A program made the translations under genes and the position numbers. A stretch of 64,000 nucleotides of DNA from Candidatus Zixiibacteriota bacterium (GTDB lineage Bacteria > Zixibacteria > MSB-5A5 > GN15 > FEB-12): contig CP070674.1 in the NCBI GenBank assembly GCA_020351995.1, positions 1,413,307 to 1,477,306 of the forward strand. The letters are read 5' to 3'. Each line of letters begins with the position of its first letter. Position 1 is the first letter of the stretch. A model generated the notes under the pieces. The model was not told the origin of the DNA. It saw nothing but the letters and a program-made list of their open reading frames with translations, and did no database searches. Shown piece after piece: positions 13,771 to 32,762 of this stretch.

Positions 13771-14844
13771 TCAGTTGTCAGCGATGATCTTTTTCAGCGC
13801 AACTACATCAAGCAAATCCACTCGCCCGCTACCATCAACATCGAACCTCAAATCATTCGGGGTGGCGTCACGCGTATGGAACAGGTAGTTCATCAATACG
13901 TCCACGTCCCCGTTATCAGTTATCCCGTCGGCGTTAAGGTCAGCCCCGGGATAGATATGCACCACCAGATCACCAATCATCTCGAATCTTGTCTTATCGA
14001 GGAACTTCCCTGAAACGGTGTACGCCAGCTCTATATCGCCGGTCAATGGTTCATAGGGCTTGAGAAGATTCTTCAAGGCAACGGTGGCCCGGATAGCCTT
14101 TCCTCCATAGACGGGATCCTGCTGAACCACCATTATGGTCCTCGGTTTTACGGCATCAACCTTCACGGACTTAAGGTCAACGTCGTATACGTCTTTCCCC
14201 CACTCACAGAAATTCCCGAAATAGATGTCCACGAATCCTCTTATCGGCGTTGTAGTGACGATATACCCCGGATCCGCATACGTGAATGGGTCGGGGCAAG
14301 CGTCGCCAATGGTATACTCATATGGGCCTCCCCAGTCAGGCACCACATTTACGTCCCCCCATATCCAGTGGTCTACCGGCGGATAGGAAGACGAATCCAC
14401 GATAATCGTCTTTTCGGCGTGTTCGCTATCGATCGGCCCTATTGTGATAGTATAGGCCGGTTCGTCAAAGAACGGCGGCATCCCGGTACCGATCACGTCC
14501 ATGGCGACAAAACCTACCGTGTCGGCTACGGAACCGTCGCAACTGAACGTCAATAAACCGATTGGACCGGTAATATAACGGGTCAGGCCATCGGGAACCG
14601 TGTCAGGAACGGTAGCCGTCCACTCCGCACCATCGGGCGAGTATACCCTGAACCCATTGTCAAGAATCCGATGATAGTCCTCATCGCCGGTAACGTGAAG
14701 AACGAACTCTATCGTTTCACCGAGCTTGAGAGTGCCGTCGGGGTTGGTAGCCTCCACGTCCTCAATCCAGATTGACTGACCCCATGCCGCACTGCCGAAA
14801 AACATAAACAGGACAAACACGAGAAACAATCCTGCCAGTCTCAT
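13771..14844 (-). CDS. Secreted protein, third member of the family with 15091..16770 and 17193..18344; C-terminal dockerin-like module (subtype 2)
   Basis: The ORF track starts at 14856. I prefer the ATG at 14844 because ATGGGAGGTATTATG places a GGAGG just upstream of it. Signal peptide MRLAGLFLVFVLFMFFGSAAWG. C-terminus at 13774..13950 reads DLNADGITDNGDVDVLMNYLF...FDVDGSGRVDLLDVVALKKII. Confidence 0.8.
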   Translation of the reverse strand: MRLAGLFLVFVLFMFFGSAAWGQSIWIEDVEATNPDGTLKLGETIEFVLHVTGDEDYHRILDNGFRVYSPDGAEWTATVPDTVPDGLTRYITGPIGLLTFSCDGSVADTVGFVAMDVIGTGMPPFFDEPAYTITIGPIDSEHAEKTIIVDSSSYPPVDHWIWGDVNVVPDWGGPYEYTIGDACPDPFTYADPGYIVTTTPIRGFVDIYFGNFCEWGKDVYDVDLKSVKVDAVKPRTIMVVQQDPVYGGKAIRATVALKNLLKPYEPLTGDIELAYTVSGKFLDKTRFEMIGDLVVHIYPGADLNADGITDNGDVDVLMNYLFHTRDATPNDLRFDVDGSGRVDLLDVVALKKIIADN

Positions 14845-14926
14845 AATACCTCCCATTGAATCAGGTTTAAAGGATTAGTGTTTTTCCCAGCAGCGTCAAT
14901 TGTGAGGGGGGCTACGCTGCGACCGC

Positions 14927-15090: not shown

Positions 15091-16770
15091 TTACTGCATG
15101 ACGATATCAATGATAGCGCGAACGTCGAGCAGGTCGATACGCCCACTGTCATCGACATCCATGCACTCATCCATTCTCTCGCCCCAGAGCGTAGCTCTCG
15201 GGCCACCATTGAACAACCAGTCTATCATGAAGACTGCGTCTTCGATGTTGGTCACGCCGTCAAAGGTGACGTCGCCAACATACATCGTCAGGTTGAACAG
15301 GAACGTGAGCGTCTGATCGCCACCGGACTTGTAATCATAGTAGACCGGGCAGGGTCTATCCTGATAACCATCCGACGGAACCGGGCGCATACCACCGGCA
15401 CCAAGGAAGCGCATAATGAAACAATCCGTCACCAGCGCTGAATCATCTCCAAAATACTCTATTTGAGGATGATCAGCGGAGTAGGGCGGGATGTTGAACA
15501 CGCGGATGGTTCCCCAGTCAATGTCTTCAAAATCATCGCACCAGATACGAACGTCAAGTCTTCTCTCATTCTCAAGCGCTTTGAGTTTGGTCGTCTCCGG
15601 GAAGCAAGTAGCATAAGGGTCACAGCCTGAGACCGTAATCGTAAAGTCCTCGTCATCGCTCAACCCGGCAGTGTTGGTAGCGGTAACCGTAACCGCATGA
15701 ACACCAACCGCGGCGGTCCAGTCGATCACGCCGGTCACGGGCTCAATAGTCATGCCGGCGGGGCCAGCGATTGAAAAGGTCGGGGGAATCGGATAGCCGA
15801 CTTCGTCGAGTTCGACGTTATAAGTGAACGCCGCACCCTCGGTGGCTGTTTGGTCATCAATCGCGGTTATAACCGGAGCCTTATTGACCACGATCACGAA
15901 CTCCTCGGTTGCTTCGCTCGGGCAGTCGTTGGAAACTCTGACGGTTACGGGGTGGGTGCCTTTAACGCAGGTCCAGTTGATTAGGCCGCTCACAGGGTCA
16001 ATAGTCATGCCGGCCGGAGCGCCGGGGTCCAGCGCGAAAGTAATAGGAGCGTCACCGGTCGCGTCAACATCGTAGGTAAAAGCGTCGCCATCCAGGTACG
16101 GGCCGGCTGGAGCGGTCGTAGCAATCGCCACATCTTCACAGCCACCTGGCTCGAACTGAAACACGTACGGGCCATCCCAGGCGATCGAATCGCCAACGGC
16201 GGTCCAGAGCCAGAAGTTGCCCGGCTCCCAGTACGTGGTATCCAAAACCAGTTGGGCCTCCGCGGCGCCCGCGACACTGGCAACGTTCAAGGAATAAAGC
16301 CAGTTATTGAATCCCGCCGGCAAACCATCCCCTTCGTTAGACACACCGGCGATACCCAGACCACCAAGACCCTTGGTAAGGGCGGCAGCTCCCCAGTACA
16401 TGTCGAACCAGGAATAGCATCCTTGGAACGGGTAGCAGCCCGCCATGAACGCGCACTCCATTTCGAATGGGTAAGTGCAGTTCTTTCCCAGGGTCACTCC
16501 GCCAATGGTAACACCATCCGGAGAATCGAAGTAGAAGCCGTTCGAAATCGCGGTGCGGACCTCATTCACGCCATCACGATTTAGATTTAAGAAGTAAATT
16601 GGAATTACCAGATCACCACCAGCCAGGGGAATCTTTCCCTCGGCGGTCAGCCCTGTCACCTCGGCGAGATCTACATAGACCCTGCAGGAGTCTACTTGGG
16701 CGGTTGCCAGGCTGAATGAGGCAATTACCAAAACAGCAAGCAATGCTGTCACTTTGATGGGTGCTCTCAT
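15091..16770 (-). CDS. Secreted protein: family N-domain + two He_PIG/cadherin-like Ig domains + pre-dockerin module + dockerin-like module (subtype 2)
   Basis: 559 aa with signal peptide MRAPIKVTALLAVLVIASFSLATA. Ig-type repeats include FTYDVDATGDAPITFALDPGAPAGMTIDPVSGLINWT and FTYNVELDEVGYPIPPTFSIAGPAGMTIEPVTGVIDWT. C-terminus at 15094..15279 reads GDVTFDGVTNIEDAVFMIDWLFNGG...DVDDSGRIDLLDVRAIIDIV. Confidence 0.85.
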   Translation of the reverse strand: MRAPIKVTALLAVLVIASFSLATAQVDSCRVYVDLAEVTGLTAEGKIPLAGGDLVIPIYFLNLNRDGVNEVRTAISNGFYFDSPDGVTIGGVTLGKNCTYPFEMECAFMAGCYPFQGCYSWFDMYWGAAALTKGLGGLGIAGVSNEGDGLPAGFNNWLYSLNVASVAGAAEAQLVLDTTYWEPGNFWLWTAVGDSIAWDGPYVFQFEPGGCEDVAIATTAPAGPYLDGDAFTYDVDATGDAPITFALDPGAPAGMTIDPVSGLINWTCVKGTHPVTVRVSNDCPSEATEEFVIVVNKAPVITAIDDQTATEGAAFTYNVELDEVGYPIPPTFSIAGPAGMTIEPVTGVIDWTAAVGVHAVTVTATNTAGLSDDEDFTITVSGCDPYATCFPETTKLKALENERRLDVRIWCDDFEDIDWGTIRVFNIPPYSADHPQIEYFGDDSALVTDCFIMRFLGAGGMRPVPSDGYQDRPCPVYYDYKSGGDQTLTFLFNLTMYVGDVTFDGVTNIEDAVFMIDWLFNGGPRATLWGERMDECMDVDDSGRIDLLDVRAIIDIVMQ

Positions 16771-17192: not shown

Positions 17193-18344
17193 TTAGTACA
17201 CATACTCGATCAGCGCCCGAATATCGAGCAGGTCAAAGCGACCACTCTGGTCGAAGTCCATGAATTCATCCATCCGATAACCGTCATAGGTGCAGGGCTC
17301 TCCGCCGTGGAAGAGGTAGTCAATCATGAAGACTACGTCATCGTTATTGACGGCGCCGTCAAAGTTCACATCGCCCTGGCTGATCATCTGAAGGAAGTCG
17401 CCATACAGAGTGTTTTCGCCACCAGCTAAATAGCTGTACGTGACCCAATACTCACCGGTATAGTCATCGGCAGGCAGCGGACGGAAGCCACCTGAGCCAA
17501 GGAAGCGCATCAGGTAGGCGTTGGTAACGACTGAGTCACCTTCGACCCAGGCCAGACCCTCATTAGTGTAGCACGGGATCTTGCCGAAGATCTTGACCGT
17601 GCCCAAGTCAACCGCATACGGATCATCTTCGCAATGAATCGAAACGTTCAGAACGCGGTCATTGTCATTGACACCGATCTCAAACGGGTTAGGCCAGCAA
17701 GTGGTAAACGGCCCTTCCGGACACGGGTCAAAACCACCCACGAATAGCGGGTCTGGAGGGGTCCAGCCCACATTAGCGCCAACACCGGTCCAGAGCCAGA
17801 AGTTGCCCGGTTCCCAGTAAGTAGTATCCATAACCAGCTGGGCCCCCAGCGGGCCGGAAACGCCCCAAGCCTTGATGGCGTAAATCCAGTCATCAAATCC
17901 CGGGGGAAGACCAGTACCCTTTTCCGCCAGGCCAGCAATACCCAGACCACCAAGACCCTTGGTAAGATCGGTGGCCGAGAAGTACATGTCAAACCAGGAA
18001 TAGCAATTGAACGGCTCGAATGGATAGCAGCCATTCATGATCGCGCACTCAAGGTCAACATTGTACACGCAGTTCTTGATAAGACTCAACGAATCAATGG
18101 TGACGCCGTCGGGCGATAAGAAGTAGTACCCGTTCGATACCGCGGTACGGAAATCCTCGGCGCCACTGGTGTTAACAAAGTGGATCGGAAATTCGAGGTC
18201 GGCGCCGACATCAGGGATATTGCCCTCTCCGTCAAGACCCGCAATCTCGCTATTAAGCACATAGACCTCTTGCCCCTGTGCGAAACCGAACGAGAAGAGT
18301 ACCATAACAGCAAGTAGTACTGTTGCTTTGAAGGGTGCTCTCAT
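17193..18344 (-). CDS. Secreted protein, short paralog of 15091..16770 (no Ig insert); dockerin-like module (subtype 2)
   Basis: 383 aa with signal peptide MRAPFKATVLLAVMVLFSFGFAQG. The N-domain is collinear with the paralog (LTKGLGGLGIAG, DTTYWEPGNFWLWT). C-terminus at 17196..17378 reads GDVNFDGAVNNDDVVFMIDYLFHGG...DFDQSGRFDLLDIRALIEYVY. Confidence 0.85.
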   Translation of the reverse strand: MRAPFKATVLLAVMVLFSFGFAQGQEVYVLNSEIAGLDGEGNIPDVGADLEFPIHFVNTSGAEDFRTAVSNGYYFLSPDGVTIDSLSLIKNCVYNVDLECAIMNGCYPFEPFNCYSWFDMYFSATDLTKGLGGLGIAGLAEKGTGLPPGFDDWIYAIKAWGVSGPLGAQLVMDTTYWEPGNFWLWTGVGANVGWTPPDPLFVGGFDPCPEGPFTTCWPNPFEIGVNDNDRVLNVSIHCEDDPYAVDLGTVKIFGKIPCYTNEGLAWVEGDSVVTNAYLMRFLGSGGFRPLPADDYTGEYWVTYSYLAGGENTLYGDFLQMISQGDVNFDGAVNNDDVVFMIDYLFHGGEPCTYDGYRMDEFMDFDQSGRFDLLDIRALIEYVY

Positions 18345-21549: not shown

Positions 21550-21561
21550 GACTCGAAAAAT

Positions 21562-21635
<74 letters not shown>

Positions 21636-21674
21636 TTTTCTTATTGCAGATTTTCCAGATTTGCCGGCCCGGCG

Positions 21675-22397
21675 TCAGTGGAGAAAAGCGGCGACACGCC
21701 GGGCGATTTCGAAATTCTTGAAGGGCTTGGTTATATAACCGTCAGCGCCCGCCTCCAGAACATCGTGCTTATCGTAACCGTAAGTCTTGCCGGTGACTAT
21801 AAGCACCGGGATTTTGCGGGATTTCTCTTTTATGGCTTTGAGCAATTCCAGGCCGTTCATGCCAGGCATCTCGAGGTCCGAAATAACCAGCCCGATCTTC
21901 TTTGAATCAAACAGTTCCAGGGCCTGTTCGCCGCTCTCGGCTTCTTTCGTCTTATATCCCTCACGCTCGACGATCTTCTTAAGCAGGCCTCGCATGAGCG
22001 GATCGTCATCGACAATCAGAATCGTCTTCGTACTGTTTTCAATCAGGTGCTGAATTTTGGTGATAAGGATTCTGGCGTCGACCGGTTTGACAATAAAATC
22101 CTTGGCCCCCAACTCAATGCTTTTCATGACTGACTCGCGGTCGTGCTGAGCCGAAACCACCAGTACCGGGATCTTGTTGTACCGCTGGTTGGTCTGCAGG
22201 TACTCCAGAAACTGAAAGCCGTCCATACCGGGCATGTAGATGGTGCAGATTATGGCATCAAAAAAACGGTGCCCATTGAGCTCATTAATAGCCATTCGTC
22301 TGGAGTTGGCGATGACTACCTCGTATTCGGCCGCATCCAGGGTGGTTTTGATGGTTTTCAGCGTGACCGGATCTTCTTCGACCAGTAAGATTCTCAT
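21675..22397 (-). CDS. Stand-alone tandem receiver protein (REC-REC); first receiver lacks the phospho-acceptor Asp
   Basis: 240 aa. REC1 reads MRILLVEEDP...FFDAIICTIYMPGMDG, with Thr52 at the acceptor position. REC2 is canonical: ILIVDDDP...IGLVISDLEMPGMNG...ITKPF. No output domain. Confidence 0.85.
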   Translation of the reverse strand: MRILLVEEDPVTLKTIKTTLDAAEYEVVIANSRRMAINELNGHRFFDAIICTIYMPGMDGFQFLEYLQTNQRYNKIPVLVVSAQHDRESVMKSIELGAKDFIVKPVDARILITKIQHLIENSTKTILIVDDDPLMRGLLKKIVEREGYKTKEAESGEQALELFDSKKIGLVISDLEMPGMNGLELLKAIKEKSRKIPVLIVTGKTYGYDKHDVLEAGADGYITKPFKNFEIARRVAAFLH

Positions 22398-22547
22398 GAA
22401 GCAATACTCTCAAAAACCGGGTTGCTCGGTTGATAATCCAACCACGAGCCACATTGTCACAGACAGGGCCGATTACCCTATCTATAAGCTTATAATCGGC
22501 CAAATTGTCCTGTGGATTAGCCTTATGCCGGTGTAAGCCACTTTCCC

Positions 22548-22568
22548 GGTGTTCAACACCTGAACACC
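22548..22568. promoter_or_regulatory. Inverted repeat GGTGTTCA-N5-TGAACACC (candidate operator), copy 1
   Basis: Perfect 8-bp arms in the 523-bp divergent intergenic region between the REC-REC gene and the pilin cluster. The same GTGTTCA-N5-TGAACACCGA occurs at 32389..32410. Confidence 0.5.
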
Positions 22569-22920
22569 GATCAACCACCAGCAGCGGAAGATTCGACTCT
22601 AAAGTCACCGGACTCAATCCCGCTCTCCCGTAGATATCCGCCTTGTAGCGGCTCTCTAACATGGACAGAATTATCTTACCATTGCCTATGCTGTCCCCAA
22701 TGTCGGATGTCCGACAGTATTCAACGGGACTAATCCATCCCGGCTGCCATGACTTGACAGGGGCGGCGCAAGACGCTTTATAACAAACAATTACGTTCAG
22801 GCCTCGATGGCTGACGCCGGGACGACAATCTAAAGGTTTGGCCCCTGAAGCCGATATTTTCTTAAAGGACCGGCAGTGCCGGTTCCGCCCTACCATTTAT
22901 TAGAAAGGACTATCGGGGTT

Positions 22921-23352
22921 ATGTACCACATTACAGGATACCATTGGAAAAACGACCGCGGCCTCAGTCTACTCGAAGTGCTGGTGGCAATGATTGTGCT
23001 CGCGGTCGGTATCTTAGGACTGGCACCTATGGTTGTGTTATCTATCGAAGGAAACAGTATATCGCGCGACTTCATCGTCGCCACCGAACTGGCTAAGGAG
23101 CAGCTTGAGCTATATGAAGCGCAGGATGTATTGATGAAGGCCAAGCCGGCACCCGCGCTTCCCACTGATAGTCTCAGTGATACCTTGATTTACTTACCCG
23201 ACGTTGACGGCTATTCGCGCACCGTTACCATTCAGGCCGCTGAAGGAATCAATCCGCCGAATCTTGTGAAAGTGACAATCGACATATCCTGGACAGACAA
23301 GTTAGGCAAGGTCCGCGCGATAAGACACTCAACACTGATGATGAATAACTGA
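22921..23352 (+). CDS. Type IV pilus minor pilin, PilV-like
   Basis: Prepilin N-terminus MYHITGYHWKNDRG/LSLLEVLVAMIVLAVGILGLAPM, the class III signal with Glu at +5. The ORF track starts at GTG 22876; I prefer ATG 22921. Confidence 0.75.
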   Translation: MYHITGYHWKNDRGLSLLEVLVAMIVLAVGILGLAPMVVLSIEGNSISRDFIVATELAKEQLELYEAQDVLMKAKPAPALPTDSLSDTLIYLPDVDGYSRTVTIQAAEGINPPNLVKVTIDISWTDKLGKVRAIRHSTLMMNN

Positions 23353-23368
23353 GGGGGGCAGGTTGAAA

Positions 23369-23986
23369 ATGAATACAAAAGAGAAAAAGCTCATTGGCGG
23401 ACACGCCGGTTTCACTCTTATAGAGCTTCTTATAGCGGCTCTCATTACGGCGATTCTGGCCGTTGCGGCGTTTCAGTTCTATGTCACCATGCAGCAGCAG
23501 GTCACTTCTCAAAAAGAGATTTCGGACATGCAGCAGATAAGCCGCTCGTGTCTCCAGGAAATCAGCAAAACTCTCCGCATGGCGGGCTACATGCTTCCCG
23601 AGGGCCACCCTGCCTTTGACACGATAAGCTCTGCCGAAATATGGGTATACATCGGGACCGGTGACCTGAGTGCCCTGGACCCGGTCGACACGACCAAATA
23701 CTACCTTCAGGAGTTTGATGCTGCTCAGTATGACAAGGTTCCGGGTCTCGCTGCTGGCATGAAACTATACAATCTGATTAAGGAGTCCGAAGAGCCCGGC
23801 TGGACACAGCCCGAAATCTTCGCCGACTACATAACGTCGCTATCCTTTCTGCCTATTGGTTCGTCAGAAATAGCAGTCACCATAGAGGTGCAAACCTCGA
23901 AAAAGGATGAAACCTTCAACGCTAACAACGGCTTTCGAACCTTTGTCAACACCGAGCGCGTTAACATGCGCAACCTGACGATATGA
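23369..23986 (+). CDS. Type IV pilus minor pilin, PilW-like
   Basis: MNTKEKKLIGGHAG/FTLIELLIAALITAILAVAAFQFY prepilin cleavage/methylation motif. The gene order V-W-X matches the classical fimU-pilVWXY1E order. Confidence 0.75.
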   Translation: MNTKEKKLIGGHAGFTLIELLIAALITAILAVAAFQFYVTMQQQVTSQKEISDMQQISRSCLQEISKTLRMAGYMLPEGHPAFDTISSAEIWVYIGTGDLSALDPVDTTKYYLQEFDAAQYDKVPGLAAGMKLYNLIKESEEPGWTQPEIFADYITSLSFLPIGSSEIAVTIEVQTSKKDETFNANNGFRTFVNTERVNMRNLTI

Positions 23987-25188
23987 GGAGGATCAAGTTG
24001 AAGAAGCTGATAAATGACAATAGTGGCGGGGCGCTTGTTATCGTCCTCGGTTTAATGCTTCTGCTGACAATAGCGGCCATACTGGCGGTGCATACCGCCC
24101 AGACCGATATAGACCTGTCTTTCAATCAGGTAGACTACGACCACGCCTTCTACATCGCCGACGCCGGCCTGAAAAAGGCCTTCAATGAACTGAACAAGGA
24201 CAACTTCTGGTCAGCCGGCTACCTTGAAATGGCCTTTGAGGACGGCGCGTATACCGTCATCACGGAACGGGATATCCCCGTCACCGATTCGGCCTTCGAC
24301 CCGATCACCGACAGGGTGACCCTGCGATCAACGGCCAGCTATCGGGAGTCTCAGGCTAACCTGAGAGCAGTGGTGGTACCGGAATTATTCTACCCCTTCA
24401 AATACGCCGTGTATGGAGAAGATGGGATTCTCATGGACAACAATTCGGAAACCGATTCCTACAACTCCGATGACGGGGCTTATGTTGATTCGCTCGCCGG
24501 GACAGAAGGCGATGTCGCATCTAATGGAACTATAGTCCTGGAGAACTCAGCGTTGGTAAACGGCGACGCCAGTAGTTCCCTGACCGGTGGTGTCAGCGTT
24601 TGTGCCACGTGTGGCGTCACGGAAGATGTTAGCGATGCAGCCGAGCCTTTCGAAATTCCGCCGATACCGGATTCGGTGTTCACTTACTATGAATCAAACA
24701 ATGACAACATTACCGGTGTTGATCCGGTAACCAGCATGATTTACCCCGGGCCGGATCTGATCCTGGCCATCGCCGACACGATAACCCTGACAACCGGCGT
24801 TTACTACTTCAACGACATAACGATGAACTCAAATTCGGTGATCATTCTGGATCCGACAGATCCAGACGTTGAGGTAAAGATATATATTCGCGGAACACTC
24901 ACCCTGGACAATAACACCACCATAAACCCGAATAATGACCCGACGGATTGCCTGATCTTCTCCGACGGCCAGATAGTTACAATCGGCAACGATACTGAGA
25001 TTTATGCCGCGTTCTACGGACCGGATGCCGATGTTGATCTGGGTAACAGCTGCGATTGGTACGGTTCGATAATAGCTGAATCGGTGAGCATGGTCAATAC
25101 GGGAAGCCTTCATTATGACGAAGCGCTGGCACCGATTCCGATCACTACCACCGGCAATATGCTCATGATATCCTGGATCGAGGATTAG
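23983..25188 (+). CDS. PilX-N-domain pilus assembly protein with C-terminal beta-helix-like domain
   Basis: 401 aa. N-terminus GGALVIVLGLMLLLTIAAILAVHTAQTDIDLS is PilX_N-like, with no Glu5. ATGA overlap with the PilW-like gene. C-terminal block FYGPDADVDLGNSCDWYGSIIAESVSMVNTGSLHYDEAL. Confidence 0.7.
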   Translation: MRRIKLKKLINDNSGGALVIVLGLMLLLTIAAILAVHTAQTDIDLSFNQVDYDHAFYIADAGLKKAFNELNKDNFWSAGYLEMAFEDGAYTVITERDIPVTDSAFDPITDRVTLRSTASYRESQANLRAVVVPELFYPFKYAVYGEDGILMDNNSETDSYNSDDGAYVDSLAGTEGDVASNGTIVLENSALVNGDASSSLTGGVSVCATCGVTEDVSDAAEPFEIPPIPDSVFTYYESNNDNITGVDPVTSMIYPGPDLILAIADTITLTTGVYYFNDITMNSNSVIILDPTDPDVEVKIYIRGTLTLDNNTTINPNNDPTDCLIFSDGQIVTIGNDTEIYAAFYGPDADVDLGNSCDWYGSIIAESVSMVNTGSLHYDEALAPIPITTTGNMLMISWIED

Positions 25189-25420
25189 CACTTTTGGCCC
25201 GAATCGCCTCACAGGCACATGGGAACTATAGCAGTATGTGAGGCACGACCGACGGCCCGGGCCCGATGAAAAGGTCGTCGATATTGAGAGTCAATTGGAC
25301 TCGAACGCTTTTAGACAGGTAACATGCGAGGGGCCTTTCTTCCTGGCGGGGGCTGACCAGCCTGCATGACATCAAGCGTGTTACAACAAGATAACGCTGT
25401 AATACGAGGAGTGTGTAGCC

Positions 25421-26587
25421 GTGGGACAACTACACATCAGTCAGCAAGGCGGGGCATTGCTCATCGCTCTGGGCATCATGTTACTGCTCACTATCGCAGC
25501 CCTCATAGCCGTGGATACCGCTCAAACCGATATGGAGCTATCCTTTAACCAGGTTCACTCCAGCCAGTCATTCTATGTCGCCCAGGCCGGGCTTATCCGG
25601 GCTTTCAACGAGATTAACAATGACAATGACTGGACGGCGGGCTTTCTGAACGAGCCGTATGAGGGGGGCTATTACACCGTCATCGTGGTTGACAGCACGG
25701 TCGAGGGTGCTCTGGTAGACACTGTCATTCTTCGCGCCACCGGTAAGATCGGCGACGCCAACACTAATCTCGAGGCACTGGTCGTTCCCGAATACTGGCG
25801 ACCATTTCAGTATGCTATGTTCGGAGACAGCGCCATAGTGATGGACAATAACACCTGTACCGACTCCTATAACTCGGACTCAGGCGACTATGCCTCCACC
25901 ATGGATCTAATCAATGGTGATGTCGCCTCTAACGGCGACCTGGAGTTCATCCATACCGCCGTTGTCGGCGGCGACGCCTCGAGCGCGACCGAAGGAGGCA
26001 TCTTTGTCTGTGCCACCTGCACCGTTTATGGAGATACCACCAGCAAGATCGATCCTCTCCCCGTTCCACCGGTACCGGATTCCGTTTACGATTGGGCACG
26101 GTCGGTCAACGCCGCTCCCGGCGGGCTTTCGGATCCATCCATGTACGATGGCGTCACTCATGCTTTAAACATGAATCTCAACTCAACGCTGACTCTATCC
26201 GGAGGCGTCTATTATTTCTCCGAAATCACAATAGAGAACAATTCCCGGCTGCAGGTTGCGCCTGGCGAAAGCGTCGAAATCTACGTGACCGGCGATATAT
26301 CTATCGGGCAAAACGCGTATGTCAATACTGACGGCGATCCGGCCGACATGGTGATTTTCTCCGATGGCGACTCCCTGCAGCTAGGCATGAGCACGGTGGT
26401 GCACGCCGCCTTTTATGGGCCTTCGGCAATTATGACAATGGAGAACAATTGTCAGTACTATGGATCAATCGTAGCCTACTCCGGCAGCGCCGTAAATGCC
26501 GCCTGTATACACTACGATCGGGCACTCCGGGAAGTGGAAGGCGGAAAAACCGGCGTGATGCATATGATCGCCTGGAAAGAATTATAA
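25421..26587 (+). CDS. Second PilX-N-domain protein (paralog of 23983..25188)
   Basis: 388 aa, GTG start. N-terminus GGALLIALGIMLLLTIAALIAVDTAQTDMELSFNQV. Collinear with its paralog, including the VCATC and FYGPSA...YGSIVA...IHYDRAL blocks. Confidence 0.7.
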   Translation: MGQLHISQQGGALLIALGIMLLLTIAALIAVDTAQTDMELSFNQVHSSQSFYVAQAGLIRAFNEINNDNDWTAGFLNEPYEGGYYTVIVVDSTVEGALVDTVILRATGKIGDANTNLEALVVPEYWRPFQYAMFGDSAIVMDNNTCTDSYNSDSGDYASTMDLINGDVASNGDLEFIHTAVVGGDASSATEGGIFVCATCTVYGDTTSKIDPLPVPPVPDSVYDWARSVNAAPGGLSDPSMYDGVTHALNMNLNSTLTLSGGVYYFSEITIENNSRLQVAPGESVEIYVTGDISIGQNAYVNTDGDPADMVIFSDGDSLQLGMSTVVHAAFYGPSAIMTMENNCQYYGSIVAYSGSAVNAACIHYDRALREVEGGKTGVMHMIAWKEL

Positions 26588-26596
26588 CAAAACAGG

Positions 26597-26630
26597 AGGC
26601 CGAGGCGACAATCCACTGCCGTCTCGGCCT
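26597..26630. terminator. Hairpin between convergent genes (PilX-like 2 and the giant gene)
   Basis: AGGCCGAG...CTCGGCCT 8-bp stem. On the minus strand it is followed by CCTGTTTTG; there is no T-run on the plus strand. Confidence 0.45.
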
Positions 26631-26659
26631 GCTATAATCAACTCTAATATCAAAGAAAT

Positions 26660-29600
26660 CTATGGCACGTTGATTGTGTAACTCTGGTAGTCGGTGCCAT
26701 AGTCATTGGTCGCCTCAATCACGACATCGTAATCGCCCGAAGAACCGGGCGTAAACTCCACTTCGCCGGTCACAGGGTCTATGGTCATCCCGCTCGGGTA
26801 GGTTGTCAATGCGTAAGTTGGGGCGGGATACCCGCTGGCGTCAGCGTCGTACGTGTACAGTACACCGACGGACCCGGTCGTTATCGGCGTGGACGTAAAC
26901 GACGGCGCAATTCCAACTACCGTAATAGCAAATGACTGAGTGTCGCTGCCGTAAGAGTTGATAGCAACAACCGTGACGTCATAATCACCAACATCAGCCG
27001 GGGTCCACTCGATCACGCCGGTATTGGCATCGACTGTCATACCCGACGGCTTTGTCGTCAGCGCGTAAGTCGGGGCCGGATAGCCATCAGCTTCAACATC
27101 ATAGCTGTAAAGTTGACCGTAGGTACCCGTTGTGACCGCCGTGGAAGTGATTGTCGGGACCTCGACGATGGTCAACACGAAGTCATCAGTATCGGTGCCG
27201 TAAGCGTTGGTAGCTTCAACGACTACATCGAAATCACCCACTCCCGTCGGGGTCCAGGCAATTTCCCCGGTGATGGGATCAATCGTCATTCCCGTCGGGT
27301 AAGTCGTCAGCGAATAGGTTGGAGCAGGGTAACCCGTGGCATCGGCATCTTCAGTGAAACCTACGCTAAGAAGCTGTACCTGATCAGGGATATCAGCCAG
27401 GAAAGGCGCCACGCCCGATACACTGATAGTGAACGGCTGCGTATCGGTGCCATAAATATTGGTAGCTTCAACAACCACATTATAATCGCCTATATCCGAC
27501 GGTGTCCACTCTACCACACCCGTATTGGCGTCAATTGTCATACCTGTTGGGTATGTTGTCAGTGAGTAAGTTGCCGCCGGGTAGCCTCCGGCCTCGGCGT
27601 CATAGCTATACAATTGGCCATAAGTACCTGTCGTCACCGGCGTTGACGTAAACGCCGGGGCAACACCTGTCACCGAGATCGTGAAGCTCTGGGGTGTCGT
27701 TCCAGCGGAGTTGGTGGCTTCAATGACAACGTCGACATTCCCGGTATCAGACGGCGTCCAGCGAACCAAACCCGTACCACTATTGATAGTCATTCCCGCG
27801 GGGTACGTAGTAAGAGAATATGTCGGCGTCGGCTCACCGGTAGCGTCGGCGTTGTACTCATAGAGTACATTATAGGTACCGGTGGTTATCGGAGTCGAGG
27901 TGAAGGTCGGCGGTATTCCTACAACGGTAAGGATGAAACTCTGGGTGTCGGCGCCATTAACATTAGCCGCTTCAACCTCCACATCGTAATCCCCGATACT
28001 GCCCGGGGTCCAAGTAATTACACCAGTGGTGGCGTTAATCTTCATGGCCGAAGGAGACGTTATCAAATCGAACGTAGGTGCCGGATTTCCCGTAGCCTCG
28101 ACATCATAAGTGTATGGTTGGTCAATCGTGGCAGTCGTAACCGGTGTTGATGTTATCACGGCTCCAGCCGGGGCCGCCGATACACTGATCGTGAAATTCT
28201 GGTATGCGGTTCCATAAGTGTTAGTGGCCTCGATTTCGACATCGTAGTCACCCTCCGAATCCGGGGTCCATTCCACAAGACCGGTTCCGCTATTAATCGT
28301 CATTCCGGTCGGATAGGTGGTTAGCGAATACGTCGGGGTCGGATAACCATCGGCATCCGCGTCATAGGAATATAGTACACCGGTTACTCCGGTAGTGACC
28401 GGCGTCGAGGTAAAGCTCGGCGCGACACCGCTCACGGATATGGTAAAGCTCTGATAATCCGTGCCGTAAATATTGGTAGCTTCCACCACAACATCGGCAT
28501 CGCCGGTGGCGTCTGGTGTCCATTCAATGACACCGGTGTTGCCATCGATGGTCATCCCGGTCGGGTACGTTGTGAGAGCGAATGTCGCCGCAGGGTATCC
28601 GCTGGCATTGGCATCATAGCTGTAGAGCTGACCGTAAGTCGCCGTGGTAACAGGAGTTGACGTAAACGCTGGAGCCACACCGGTGACACCGATAGTATAG
28701 CTCTGCTGTGTACTTCCGGCGGCATTGATCGCTTCGATAACGACATCGACATCACCCGTATCTGCGGGCGTCCAGCGTACAACACCGGTTCCACTATTGA
28801 TTGTCATACCGGCTGGCCCATCGAGCAGGGCGTAGGTAGGCGTGGGATCGCCCGTGGCGTCGGCATCATACTCGTACTGTACACCGTAGGTCGCCGTAAG
28901 AATCGGCGTGGAGGTAAAGCTTGGAGCAACTCCCGACACCGTCACCACGAAACTCTGGGTGTCGGCGCCATTGACGTTAAGAGCCTCCACTTCAACATCG
29001 AAGTCACCGACAGACCCCGGTGTCCAGCTGATAAGCCCGGTCGTTGAGTTGATGTTCATGCCCGACGGCGAGGTAATGAGGTCAAACGTCGGGGCCGGGT
29101 AGCCGGTAGCCTCAACGTCGTAAGCATACGCCTGCCCCACCGTCACGCTCGTGACAGGTGTAGAGGTAATCACCGGTGGTTCCGGGGTTCCGGAAACCGA
29201 TATGGTGTAATTCTGAATATCAAGACCGTAGGCGTTACTGGCTTCGATAGTAACATCAACATCACCCTCTTCGGTCGGTGTCCACTGCACCACACCGGTC
29301 GCCGGATCAATCGTCATACCGGTCGGGAATTCTGTAAGGGCGAACGTCGCCGCCGGGTAACCGTCGGTCTCGGCATCATAACTATATAGCACTCCAACCA
29401 CACCGGTCGTCGGAGGACTTGATATAAAAGTCGGGGCAATGCCGGCCACCGAAATAGTGAAATTCTGAATGTCCGTTCCATAAGCGTTTGCGGCCTCGAC
29501 GATGACATTATGATCGCCATCATCATCCGGTGTCCACTGAATAAGGCCGCTCGCCGGGTCAATCGTCATTCCGGTGGGGAAGGTTGTCAGCGAGAACGTA

Positions 29601-32182
29601 GCCGCCGGGTAACCATCGGCGTCGGCATCATAACTATATAATTGTTGATATGTTCCGGTGGTGATCGGGGTCGAGGTAAAGGTCGGCGCGATTCCGGCTA
29701 CCGATATGGTGAAGCTCTGCGGATCGGTACCCGAACTGTTACTGGCTTCAACCACAACATCGTAATCCCCTACGTCACCAGGCGTCCACTGAATCAGCCC
29801 CGTAGCCGGGTCGATGGTCATCCCGGTAGGGTAAGTCGTGAGCGCGAAGGTTGGGGCCGGATTGCCGCTTGCTTCAACATCGTATGTGTATAATTGATTG
29901 TACGTCCCGGTGAGAATAGGAGTCGAGGTGATCACTGGCGCCTCGGCAGGCAGGACCGAGATTGTGAAATTCTGCGGCGTCGTGCCGGCCGAGTTAGTGG
30001 CCTCCAGAACAACGTCGTAGTCACCGTCCGAAGGCGGAGTCCACTGGATAAGACCGGTAATAGGATCGACAGTCATTCCGGCCGGAAAGGTAACCAGAGA
30101 ATAACTGGGCACCGGATACCCGTCAGCATCGGCGTCATAAACATATAGTTCACCGGAAACACCTGTCAGGGGTGGGCTTGTGGTAAACGAAGGGGCGATA
30201 CCGCTGACCGAGATGGTATAGGGCTGATAATCATCGCCCCACGTATTCGAAGCGTTAATGGTAACATCGAAATCGCCAACGTCATCCGGCGTCCATTCTA
30301 CGAGGCCGGTAACCGGATCGATAGTCATTCCCGGCGGTGCCAAAGTAAGTGAGAAATCCGGATCTGGGTCGCCATCGGCGTTGGCGTCATAGCTATACAG
30401 CACACCGTAAGTAGCCGTCGTTACTGGAGTGGACGTGAACATGGGCGCGATTCCGCCGAGGGGACAGTCGATTGGAGCGGGGCCGCCGCGGTGCAGGTAG
30501 TCGATCAAATAGTCAACATCGAGAATATCTACCTGGTCATTGTCATCGGCATCGGCCTCCTGCTCGCAAATCGGTGCCGAGCCGTCTCGAAAGAGATAGT
30601 CGACTATAAAGTCCAGGTCAAGAAGATCGAATTGACCGTTATGGTCGGCATCGCCACGCAATTCACAGCACTCCAGCCATTCAAGCTCGGTGTTGACGTA
30701 TAAATACATTCGCTCACCCACAATTGAGTCAACCCGCACATAGATGCCCGAATAACCATAGTAACTGTCACTGCTCGGATAAGTCTGCGGACCAAACTCG
30801 CTCTGTCCGGGGACATCGGACGAAAAAAGCGCCCCTTTTCTGGTCTCCCAGGGATACCACCATTGGGCGCTGTCGGTCAAACGGCCTTCAGGGTTATAAG
30901 TATAATCCTTGAGCGGGTTGTAACCGGCATCCTCGACGCACACGGCATAGTGGGGATCTAAGGGCGTTCCCTGGTTGAGTGATATAATCTCTTGGGGGTC
31001 GACCAGCGAATCATCAATATGTGTTATCAATAGTCCGCGGTCCAGCACGTCATAACCGAACGTGAGATTGGGATAGAACCATGAGCAAAAATCGGAGTCG
31101 AATTTATCGAACTTACCTGCTGACTGCGGATTTCGGTACTCGAGTAAGAAGTACTCCAGGTCGCTGTCATTGATGGGTATTCTATATAATGAAGAATCTG
31201 CGGTTGTCTCAACATTGTATATGACGAGATCATGATACTCGCCCTCAAGAATGATCGGCTCGATATACCCCAGCCGCACCTTGTTCCAGCCGCAGTAATG
31301 ATTGGCGCTTACCCCGCCCAGCGACAAATAACCGTAGCCATAGTAACCCATTGGATCCCAATCAACAAGCGGATGGTCGTTCTGGTCGTTCGCAATATTA
31401 TAGGTCGATGTCACCAGTTTGCCGTCGTAGTCGTACAGGTCTGCCAGGCCGATGTTATGGCCAACTTCGTGAACAAACACGCGGATACCGCTCCGTACAG
31501 TCTCTCCGCTGAACTGCACCGGGTATATGGGGTCCCGCAGTGGTTTGAGCTCCGGACAGGTGTTCCAGGCGTCCACCTGGACCCGGTCATAGCGGCCCCA
31601 GCCCTGATCACTGGCAGCGGCATAGGACCAGATATCGAGAGGATCCTGGGAATCTTCTTCTCCGACACCGGAACGGATGAAACAGATCGCGTCGGCCTTC
31701 CTATCCTCGTTGCCATCATATAGAGAATAGTCAATGTACGGATCTAATATCTCAAACAGCGAACTGAATGGAAAATACTTTCCAAATGTGGGGCCGGCGT
31801 TGTACCAATCAAATACATCGCCGGTAAGCTTCACCTGGCCATACGAAACCTCATGGATGTAATCGGCCAGAGAACCCTCGGGAAGAACGTCGCGGGAGAA
31901 GAGCAAAGTATCGAAAGCCTGCCATGGTAACGTCCCGGGCCGATCTCCCCATTCCACCAGAATAGCCAGCAGCCTGAGACTGTCTCCCTTAAAGCTTGCC
32001 GCTGAGAGGAGGTCAGCTTGTGTCCCGGCATATCCGTGCCAGGGAAGTCTGCCCCATTGAACCTGGACCTGTGATTCGGGCATATCGAAGACGAGAAAAT
32101 AATCGGGGTCGGAAGCCAGCGCGGGCACGCCAAGGAGTAAGACAAGGCTGCCAATTAGAAGTTTTCTGGGCATTTTCTTCAC
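26660..32182 (-). CDS. Giant secreted protein: M6/InhA-like metalloprotease domain + internal dockerin-like module + 15 tandem He_PIG/cadherin-like Ig repeats
   Basis: 1840 aa with signal peptide MKKMPRKLLIGSLVLLLGVPALA. Zinc site FVHEVGHNIGLADLYDYDG, with HEVGH at 31457..31471. Dockerin-like CCELRGDADHNGQFDLLDLDFIVDYLFRDGSAPICEQEADADDNDQVDILDVDYLIDYLHRGGPAPIDC at 30455..30673. Repeats span 26663..30454. Confidence 0.9.
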   Translation of the reverse strand: MKKMPRKLLIGSLVLLLGVPALASDPDYFLVFDMPESQVQVQWGRLPWHGYAGTQADLLSAASFKGDSLRLLAILVEWGDRPGTLPWQAFDTLLFSRDVLPEGSLADYIHEVSYGQVKLTGDVFDWYNAGPTFGKYFPFSSLFEILDPYIDYSLYDGNEDRKADAICFIRSGVGEEDSQDPLDIWSYAAASDQGWGRYDRVQVDAWNTCPELKPLRDPIYPVQFSGETVRSGIRVFVHEVGHNIGLADLYDYDGKLVTSTYNIANDQNDHPLVDWDPMGYYGYGYLSLGGVSANHYCGWNKVRLGYIEPIILEGEYHDLVIYNVETTADSSLYRIPINDSDLEYFLLEYRNPQSAGKFDKFDSDFCSWFYPNLTFGYDVLDRGLLITHIDDSLVDPQEIISLNQGTPLDPHYAVCVEDAGYNPLKDYTYNPEGRLTDSAQWWYPWETRKGALFSSDVPGQSEFGPQTYPSSDSYYGYSGIYVRVDSIVGERMYLYVNTELEWLECCELRGDADHNGQFDLLDLDFIVDYLFRDGSAPICEQEADADDNDQVDILDVDYLIDYLHRGGPAPIDCPLGGIAPMFTSTPVTTATYGVLYSYDANADGDPDPDFSLTLAPPGMTIDPVTGLVEWTPDDVGDFDVTINASNTWGDDYQPYTISVSGIAPSFTTSPPLTGVSGELYVYDADADGYPVPSYSLVTFPAGMTVDPITGLIQWTPPSDGDYDVVLEATNSAGTTPQNFTISVLPAEAPVITSTPILTGTYNQLYTYDVEASGNPAPTFALTTYPTGMTIDPATGLIQWTPGDVGDYDVVVEASNSSGTDPQSFTISVAGIAPTFTSTPITTGTYQQLYSYDADADGYPAATFSLTTFPTGMTIDPASGLIQWTPDDDGDHNVIVEAANAYGTDIQNFTISVAGIAPTFISSPPTTGVVGVLYSYDAETDGYPAATFALTEFPTGMTIDPATGVVQWTPTEEGDVDVTIEASNAYGLDIQNYTISVSGTPEPPVITSTPVTSVTVGQAYAYDVEATGYPAPTFDLITSPSGMNINSTTGLISWTPGSVGDFDVEVEALNVNGADTQSFVVTVSGVAPSFTSTPILTATYGVQYEYDADATGDPTPTYALLDGPAGMTINSGTGVVRWTPADTGDVDVVIEAINAAGSTQQSYTIGVTGVAPAFTSTPVTTATYGQLYSYDANASGYPAATFALTTYPTGMTIDGNTGVIEWTPDATGDADVVVEATNIYGTDYQSFTISVSGVAPSFTSTPVTTGVTGVLYSYDADADGYPTPTYSLTTYPTGMTINSGTGLVEWTPDSEGDYDVEIEATNTYGTAYQNFTISVSAAPAGAVITSTPVTTATIDQPYTYDVEATGNPAPTFDLITSPSAMKINATTGVITWTPGSIGDYDVEVEAANVNGADTQSFILTVVGIPPTFTSTPITTGTYNVLYEYNADATGEPTPTYSLTTYPAGMTINSGTGLVRWTPSDTGNVDVVIEATNSAGTTPQSFTISVTGVAPAFTSTPVTTGTYGQLYSYDAEAGGYPAATYSLTTYPTGMTIDANTGVVEWTPSDIGDYNVVVEATNIYGTDTQPFTISVSGVAPFLADIPDQVQLLSVGFTEDADATGYPAPTYSLTTYPTGMTIDPITGEIAWTPTGVGDFDVVVEATNAYGTDTDDFVLTIVEVPTITSTAVTTGTYGQLYSYDVEADGYPAPTYALTTKPSGMTVDANTGVIEWTPADVGDYDVTVVAINSYGSDTQSFAITVVGIAPSFTSTPITTGSVGVLYTYDADASGYPAPTYALTTYPSGMTIDPVTGEVEFTPGSSGDYDVVIEATNDYGTDYQSYTINVP
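26663..30454 (-). repeat. 15 tandem coding repeats of 246-258 nt (82-86 aa Ig-like units)
   Basis: Repeat boundaries counted by hand. Consensus: G(V/I)AP.FTSTP.TT.TYG.LYSYDADA.GYPAPTY.LTTYP.GMTID..TG...WTP...GDYDVV.EATN.YGTD.Q.FTISV. Confidence 0.9.
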
Positions 32183-32318
32183 TGTTGTTGTCCTGTTCTT
32201 AACTGGTGTGTACGTAAGTGTCAGAGTTCTTAAGTAATCGGAGTAAATCTCTCACCCGGACGGGGGTCCTGGGGCGAATCGGGTAAAGTGCTACTCGACA
32301 CGGTGATTAACTGGCCTA

Positions 32319-32347
32319 AATATAGGCTACAAAGTCTTTTTTGTCAA
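32319..32347 (-). promoter_or_regulatory. Sigma70-type promoter TTGACA-N17-TATATT for the giant gene
   Basis: The minus strand reads gtgTTGACAaaaaagactttgtagccTATATTtagg. This implies a leader of about 130 nt. Confidence 0.65.
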
Positions 32348-32353
32348 CACTTT

Positions 32354-32407
32354 GTCTTCCTTCAGAAGACATTATTTCCGATCGGAAAGTGTTCATATAA
32401 TGAACAC
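32354..32407. promoter_or_regulatory. Three back-to-back inverted repeats immediately upstream of the giant-gene -35
   Basis: GTCTTC-N5-GAAGAC at 32354..32370. The perfect 14-bp palindrome TTTCCGATCGGAAA at 32375..32388. GTGTTCA-N5-TGAACAC at 32389..32407. Confidence 0.5.
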
Positions 32408-32674
32408 CGAAAAACGTCCTCCTGTATCCGGCAAACATTCATTGTTATTTCTGTCTTAATTATCGGCCGCAAGACCATCTACCTGCACCCGCAAAATCAA
32501 GCGAAGGCGATAAAGCCAAAGGCCTTACGCTTGTCACGTGAGGCTCAATGAGAAGATCTTGTTTCTTCTCAAAGGTGAGGTTATTTGCAGTGACGGTGCC
32601 CCGCTTATGGCATCAGCCCCCTGCCATACGTGCTAAACACGTATATGGAAGGCTCCATAAGTCGTATTAAATAT

Positions 32675-32762
32675 TGGTGCCGAAGGGGGGACTCGAACCC
32701 CCACTCCCGTAAAGAGAACTGCGCCCTGAACGCAGCGCGTCTACCAGTTTCACCACTTCGGC
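32675..32762 (-). tRNA. tRNA-Leu (anticodon CAG), CCA encoded
   Basis: Folded by hand. Acceptor GCCGAAG/CTTCGGC, anticodon stem CTGCG/CGCAG with loop TTCAGGG, long variable arm, T arm GGGGG-TTCGAGT-CCCCC, discriminator A and CCA. Confidence 0.9.

Follow-up and report, generated by a model that had tools for sequence, protein, structure and literature searches.

The window, here the whole 64-kb stretch of DNA that was analysed, derives from a Candidatus Zixiibacteriota MAG. It encodes a protein with two receiver domains (REC-REC), a cluster of pseudopilin-like proteins and a giant exoprotein, and it carries a short inverted repeat twice in the DNA beside these genes (Table 1). Matches of REC-REC in the PDB were to receiver domains only, with no DNA-binding or output domain. 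Its first receiver has Thr52 at the position of the phospho-acceptor Asp (…IICTIYMPGMDG) and the second is canonical (…VISDLEMPGMNG), an architecture of a pseudo-receiver followed by a receiver. The giant exoprotein begins with an N-terminal M6-type metalloprotease (HEVGHNIGLADLYD), which is followed by dockerin repeats and ~15 He_PIG Ig-like repeats. The sigma factor gene of the window is RpoD/RpoS-like and not FliA.

Table 1. Coordinates of genes, predicted promoters and repeat copies in the window
Feature	Position	Strand	Details
tRNA-Arg	21561-21636	+	
Gene for REC-REC, a 240-aa protein	21675-22397	-	Pfam Response_reg twice; orthologues
REC-REC sigma-28-type promoter, predicted	22493-22519	-	TAAT-N15-GCCGATTA
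Dyad copy 1	22549-22567	.	ccgGTGTTCAacaccTGAACACcga = GTGTTCAACACCTGAACAC; GTGTTCA-acacc-TGAACAC
Pilin cluster sigma-28-type promoter, predicted	22831-22857	+	TAAAGGTT-n11-GCCGATAT
Pseudopilin-like genes, n=4	~22921-26587	+	N_methyl, PilX_N, DUF7305; weak PilV/GspI/J/K matches
Giant exoprotein gene, 1840 aa	26660-32182	-	M6-type metalloprotease/dockerin/He_PIG
Giant gene sigma-70-type promoter, predicted	32319-32347	-	TTGACA-17-TATATT, near-consensus
Dyad copy 2	32389-32407	.	aaaGTGTTCAtataaTGAACACcga = GTGTTCATATAATGAACAC; GTGTTCA-tataa-TGAACAC
GGCCGATAAT, sigma-28 -10-like decamer	32459-32468	-	51 nt 5' of dyad 2
tRNA-Leu	32675-32762	-	

The M6 metalloprotease/dockerin family is highly expanded in Zixibacteria. 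Genes of this family converge on a DUF7305/N_methyl pseudopilin cluster in the window (22921-32182) and in a separate Zixibacteria genome (L136, 6220-17341), the convergent partner of the pilins being one giant gene in the former vs four tandem ~575-aa genes in the latter. Further dockerin/He_PIG secreted proteins are encoded at 13771-14856 (-), 15091-16770 (-) and 17193-18344 (-), and the inverted repeat lies upstream of none of them.

The gene order from 21.6 to 41.6 kb is rearranged relative to three related loci (L006, L137 and L008). In the relatives, the REC-REC gene adjoins a sigma factor/HtrA block in an orientation opposite to that of the window, as a convergent pair in L006 and L137. 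In the window, REC-REC is inverted and separated from this block by ~19 kb holding the pilins, the giant gene, tRNA-Leu and glycosyl-modifying genes, tRNA genes being located at its borders or close to them. Judged by this gene order, the 21.6-41.6 kb region is a rearranged or inserted segment.

Recurrence of the dyad in the window

The inverted repeat is a dyad of 19 bp, GTGTTCA-N5-TGAACAC. An earlier note on this DNA had reported two copies with identical arms and a shared 3' CGA, and direct reading confirmed both copies in their places, the arms being identical at 14 of 14 positions and CGA following on the 3' side each time. In copy 1 the arms extend to 9 bp (CGGTGTTCA / TGAACACCG, CG/CG included), and its core, TGTTCA-N5-TGAACA, occupies 22550-22566. 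Each half-site is 6 bp long, and the two begin at an interval of 11 bp, close to a helical turn. Neither copy falls in coding sequence, and each is found 5' of a predicted promoter. The placement of copy 1 inside a 523-bp divergent region between REC-REC and a PilV-like gene fits the REC-REC start at 22397 and a PilV-like start that is probably 22921, and copy 2 lies, as had been described, some 50 nt 5' of the -35 element of the giant gene, its centre being 51-56 nt from TTGACA.

The recurrence exceeds chance, in agreement with the earlier claim. The window contains two exact matches to the full pattern, and a search allowing up to two mismatches returned the same two, against a mean of 0.15 expected from 100 dinucleotide shuffles, none of which (0/100) gave two or more matches. 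For the relaxed core, two exact matches were found vs 0.03 expected. Among the 32 perfect palindromes of the window with 7-bp arms and spacers of 3-8 nt, GTGTTCA-N5-TGAACAC alone recurs, so the result stands after correction for its post-hoc choice.

Conservation at the REC-REC gene and the giant gene

Orthologues of REC-REC with their flanks were collected at 87% identity (L002, L003), 83% (L007), 74% (L005, L008, L011), 56-57% (L006, L137) and 49% (L138). Copy 1 lies ~152 nt 5' of the REC-REC gene, and a dyad occupies the matching position in six lineages, namely the window, L002, L007, L005, L008 and L011. The window, L002 and L011 carry an exact core, whereas L007 (TGCTCA) and L008 (TGACCA) depart from it at one position and L005 at two. 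In all six, 59-62 nt separate the centre of the dyad from a CCGATTATA block and 160-166 nt separate it from the REC-REC ATG. A footprint test at REC-REC gave a column identity of 0.81-0.86 at the dyad vs ~0.5 in the flanks; in the sliding identity profile of the upstream region, the other peaks over the background of ~0.5 were GGCTAA (0.78) and TTTGGCCGATTATA (0.96). The dyad is missing at the 56-57% orthologues, where the gene further upstream has its terminator, canonical and GC-rich, at the corresponding place. By this distribution, copy 1 was gained or kept within one subclade.

The CCGATTATA block matches the -10 element recognized by sigma-28 (FliA/SigD), whose E. coli consensus is TAAAGTTT-n11-GCCGATAA (PMC2859248). 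The predicted REC-REC promoter, TAATCCAC-n11-GCCGATTA, combines a weak -35 with a strong -10 that agrees with this consensus at 7/8 positions. The pattern TAAK-N15-(G/T)CCGATTA is present in the window and at the equivalent position in L002, L005-L008, L011, L137 and L138. Its N15 spacing is unchanged in the orthologues as far as those at 56-57%, the CCGATTATA block does not vary among proteins of at least 56% identity, and the 49% orthologue has an element of similar form. Because the dyad keeps its place at REC-REC across lineages, copy 1 belongs to the REC-REC promoter region.

The earlier note had attached copy 1 to the minor pilins and had proposed one regulon of pilins and giant protease/adhesin. 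The PilV-like gene is divergent from REC-REC, with the dyad in their common intergenic region, in the window, L002 and L007, and in these lineages only; there the dyad could serve as a bidirectional operator that places the minor-pilin cluster and the giant exoprotein in one regulon. The convergence of M6 protease genes and pilin cluster in the window and L136 likewise hints at a functional association. Against this, the dyad stays with REC-REC in L005, L008 and L011, where the 5' neighbour is a co-directional Peptidase_C1 (cysteine protease) gene and pilins lie elsewhere, and the pilin clusters of L005 and L136 have no dyad. The dyad is also ~270 nt from the pilin -35 element, with ~190 nt of unalignable DNA between them, and the promoter of the pilins is by itself of good sigma-28 type. 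It has 7/8 consensus positions in each element, much better than the REC-REC promoter, and has counterparts in L002 at 9566-9540 (-), in L007 at 308-282 (-) and in L136 at 17431-17405 (-). The pilin promoter is context and stands outside the dyad system, and a bidirectional operator of this kind is unlikely. Since the dyad follows REC-REC and the pilins have their own promoter, the supported regulon link is that of REC-REC with the giant protease/adhesin. The giant gene thereby keeps its place in the proposed regulon and REC-REC replaces the pilins as the gene at copy 1, where the comparison of loci indicates that the earlier note had assigned the wrong gene.

At copy 2, an orthologous dyad, GTGTTCAGTAAATGAGCAC, lies at 234-252 of L002, 5' of the orthologous giant gene, with 13/14 arm positions kept. 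Between the window and this relative, the spacer and flanks of copy 2 have diverged, no indel separates dyad and -35, and the giant gene promoter is 100% conserved. The REC-REC copy is kept in the same 87%-identity relative despite diverged flanks, and the maintenance of both copies supports a selectively maintained dyad of the operator-like kind that the earlier note had described. In a metagenome search with the giant protein N-terminus, one locus was found, whose 5' end was missing and which had no upstream DNA. No dyad was present 5' of the paralogous M6 protease gene from the same sample (L134) or of the M6 protease genes in L135 and L136. Its absence from the M6 genes of L134-L136 and from the L005 and L136 pilins indicates that the dyad is not a generic feature of the family or of intergenic DNA, and L134, L135, L136 and L005 rule out that it marks M6 protease genes or pilin genes in general.

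Chance could have produced the pair, with short divergence time giving the appearance of conservation: only two copies exist in the window, and site 2 is known from two closely related species. The expectation of at most 0.15 (~0.03 for the core) and the retention of 10-12 of 12 core positions in lineages with 74-87% protein identity, where the flanks fall to ~50% identity, make this reading very unlikely, with next to no probability left to it.

Several further features surround copy 2. The 5' leader of the giant gene, 32183-32328 (-), is ~95% identical to L002/L003, far above the adjacent intergenic DNA. The -10 region of this gene sits within a palindrome, GGCCTAtattTAGGCC, in L002, of which the window version has one mismatch. 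Leader conservation and palindrome together suggest a second operator or a leader RNA. Upstream of dyad 2, the block at ~32465-32618 (-), between tRNA-Leu and dyad, is conserved in L002 at ~20-175. Its predicted multi-helix structure has nine pairs kept by compensatory changes in a comparison of two sequences only (GAGAAGA/TCTTCTC vs GACAGG/CCTGTC, for example), and a match in Rfam was not found. One possibility is that the block forms part of the tRNA-Leu transcript as a small RNA not described before.

DNA site, RNA hairpin, terminator or repeat

An inverted repeat may be conserved for pairing in RNA, and both copies could be hairpins in transcripts, acting as leader, attenuator or processing signal. 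Stable folds are predicted for both copies in the window and in L002 (-12 to -15 kcal/mol, z-scores near -3 to -4.5). A sigma-28 -10-like decamer, GGCCGATAAT, 5' of copy 2 could also set that copy inside a transcript; GGCCGATWAT has two matches in the window vs 0.35 expected, the second being this decamer, which is conserved in L002 as GGCCGATAAG and has no TAAA at its -35 position. The variation among sites speaks against this reading. Over eight dyad sites, 4/7 arm pairs show no variation, and the arm changes are almost all one-sided (TGACCA, TTACCA, TGAGCA, TGCTCA), with 7/56 unpaired cells and one compensatory cell. Covariation does not exceed the shuffle level, the observed score being reached in 267/500 column shuffles and the count of paired cells in 253/500. 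Neither L005 (0 kcal/mol) nor L008 (-3.1 kcal/mol, not from the arms) forms the hairpin, although both retain the half-site TGTTCA. In addition, the conserved REC-REC promoter is situated downstream of copy 1, and Rfam searches by gathering threshold and by E-value matched the two tRNAs alone. One-sided changes, shuffle-level covariation and lost hairpins fit recognition of the sequence by a protein and not selection for pairing. The conservation of the dyad is thus of sequence, not of pairing, and a hairpin role for both copies retains little probability.

The main rival for copy 2 alone is a Rho-independent terminator of the tRNA-Leu unit, which would include the conserved structured region and whose likeness to copy 1 would be coincidental or secondary. 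On the giant-gene strand, which also carries tRNA-Leu further upstream, a few U come after the hairpin (UUUCC in the window, UUUUUG in L002), and the folded 41-nt stretches have predicted energies of -12.3 and -14.8 kcal/mol (z -3.5 and -3.3), respectively. The DNA from tRNA-Leu to the dyad holds no other terminator-like hairpin, and the single L002 arm change preserves a G-U pair. This explanation meets several difficulties. Terminators seen in the phylum have GC-rich stems and that of copy 2 is AT-rich; the window copy has three U only and was missed by the terminator scan. A 7-bp stem of preset sequence with the same loop length would arise at an estimated ~6e-5 per hairpin, or ~0.005 per window. 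Copy 1 lacks a U-tract on both strands and is left unexplained, as is the identity of the two copies, and, as shown above, it is the sequence that is conserved. We therefore regard termination as the principal function of copy 2 as improbable, but with TTTTTG behind it the L002 copy looks like a terminator, and copy 2 might serve as one in addition.

The earlier note had itself named a dispersed, REP-like repeat as the alternative to a regulatory site. In the window and ~200 kb of related Zixibacteria DNA, copies occurred only at orthologous positions, which does not bear out that alternative. In a wider form of it, the 9.8-kb pilin/giant-gene block would be bracketed by sites, or by remnants, of a repeat that is mobile or dispersed, or else of site-specific recombination. 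The copies do bracket this convergent block, tRNA genes lie just outside, and the locus is rearranged vs L006, L137 and L008, in that REC-REC is inverted and the window has ~19 kb more. On the other hand, the spacers are wholly different (ACACC vs TATAA) and hence provide no recombination core in common, and no recombinase or transposase gene is annotated in the window. Similarity ends at the dyad with none in the flanks, ~260 kb of Zixibacteria DNA yielded no extra copies, and copy 1 also occurs in lineages without the pilin/giant-gene block. Recombination-site and dispersed-repeat explanations are disfavoured and have only a slim chance of being correct.

A pattern scan of genome contigs with GTGTTCANNNNNTGAACAC gave at least 120 matches; the matches listed were all from unrelated taxa, with no Zixibacteria among them. 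The same 19-bp pattern was seen at Streptomyces loci L015, L030, L035, L036, L052, L062, L066, L085, L098, L102, L111, L114, L129 and L130, in a conserved context (ATCACAATCAAACAAAGAAC … dyad … GGCGTAGGTTCCGC … GATCAGTTC). In Mycobacterium fortunisiensis (L058, 4547-4602) it occurs twice, 37 bp apart. These copies are probably functional elements in their own genomes and are unrelated to the Zixibacteria dyad.

Other identities were also set aside. A sigma-54 promoter with an enhancer-binding protein was rejected, as TGGCAC-N5-TTGCW was found 24 times vs 24 expected, and inspection of the alignments revealed no conserved GG-N10-GC downstream of either dyad. A micro-ORF inside the dyad, GTG-TTC-ANN-NNN-TGA, is out, since GTG is changed to CTG in four lineages. 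LexA boxes have GAAC/GTTC cores, such as the TGTTC-N4-GAACA reported for Verrucomicrobia; the dyad has TGTTC-N7-GAACA, and it lies at genes for a receiver protein and an exoprotease instead of SOS repair genes. TnrA binds TGTNA-N7-TNACA and NifA binds TGT-N10-ACA. The dyad departs from the sites of these two proteins, and from parS and CRP/FNR sites, in spacing or key positions.

Proposed regulation and the nearest known systems

The dyad is, on balance, likely to be the operator of a putative dimeric regulator that would link REC-REC and the giant exoprotein. From the sequence-type conservation we infer binding of a dimeric transcription factor to the core TGTTCA-N5-TGAACA. Relative to the predicted transcript starts, copy 1 would be centred near -73 of the REC-REC sigma-28-type promoter and copy 2 near -86 of the giant gene sigma-70-type promoter. 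The distances from dyad centres to -10 hexamers are ~66.5 and 76.5 bp, a difference of ~10 bp or one helical turn (n=2). Since both sites lie upstream of the -35 and the REC-REC -35 is poor, the factor would most likely be an upstream (class-I-like) activator or modulator; occlusion would be less likely, and we infer activation in preference to repression. The signalling protein REC-REC and the giant exoprotein would then come under one input, and REC-REC might conceivably feed back on its own promoter via a partner. No gene for a helix-turn-helix transcription factor was found in the window, which has only sigma factors, or conserved beside REC-REC, and searches with E-values up to 1 found no DNA-binding domain in the 136-138 aa proteins beside REC-REC in L005, L006 and L007.

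A palindromic transcription-factor site is a routine, ordinary kind of element. A more specific version, in which a Zixibacteria-specific regulator new to science would act from an unusually distal site (~-73) on a promoter of the sigma-28 holoenzyme and couple the tandem-receiver protein to the 1840-aa M6 protease/adhesin, is rather unlikely. If true, it would form, with the adjacent sigma-28-driven pseudopilin cluster, a switch of motility, adhesion and proteolysis in an uncultured phylum. The Zixibacteria have no cultured members, and their transcriptional wiring is essentially uncharted. The operator footprint and the sigma-28-type promoters at a tandem CheY-like gene and at pseudopilins are concrete, testable cis-elements, which hint at a tie between a signalling module and the genes for surface proteins and exoproteins.

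Among known systems, the tandem-receiver organization of REC-REC is reminiscent of Myxococcus FrzZ. NtrC-type enhancer sites are 17-bp dyads, TGCACC-N5-GGTGCA, with which the Zixibacteria dyad shares the 6-N5-6 geometry and the distal upstream location; it differs in that neither copy has a conserved sigma-54 GG-N10-GC promoter downstream. Class I activators at sigma-70 promoters are exemplified by CRP at -61.5, with further sites upstream at steps of about a helical turn. Copy 2 resembles these in lying upstream of a sigma-70-type -35, at ~-86, but the giant gene promoter is already near-consensus (TTGACA-17-TATATT) and has no obvious need of an activator, so that a modulating or anti-activating role at this gene is equally possible.

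Literature searches for the motif strings gave no match, and those for the half-sites brought up nothing beyond a half-site of B. subtilis DeoR and the 12-2-12 repeats of ArsR type, both arranged differently from the dyad. DeoR, a SorC-family protein, binds an operator with the half-site TTGAACA located between -60 and -21 (PMC11229326). The REC-REC dyad of L002 and L011, TGTTCAA-N3-TTGAACA, has the identical 7-nt half-site; the half-site order is reversed in DeoR (ATTGAA-N6-TTCAAT), and a SorC-family gene was not found here. The likeness is one of letters and does not make the dyad a member of this operator class.

Among documented systems the closest is that of the E. coli aer promoter, where a CRP dimer activates a sigma-28-dependent promoter and helix face matters (PMC2859248). 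The two differ in sequence and position, TGTGA-N6-TCACA at -49.5 vs TGTTCA-N5-TGAACA at ~-73, and no gene for a CRP-family or other candidate regulator was found here. In both, a dyad-symmetric, dimer-type site lies upstream of an imperfect sigma-28-type promoter, and the dependence on helix face at aer has its parallel in the Zixibacteria dyads, whose positions relative to the -10s are about one helical turn apart.
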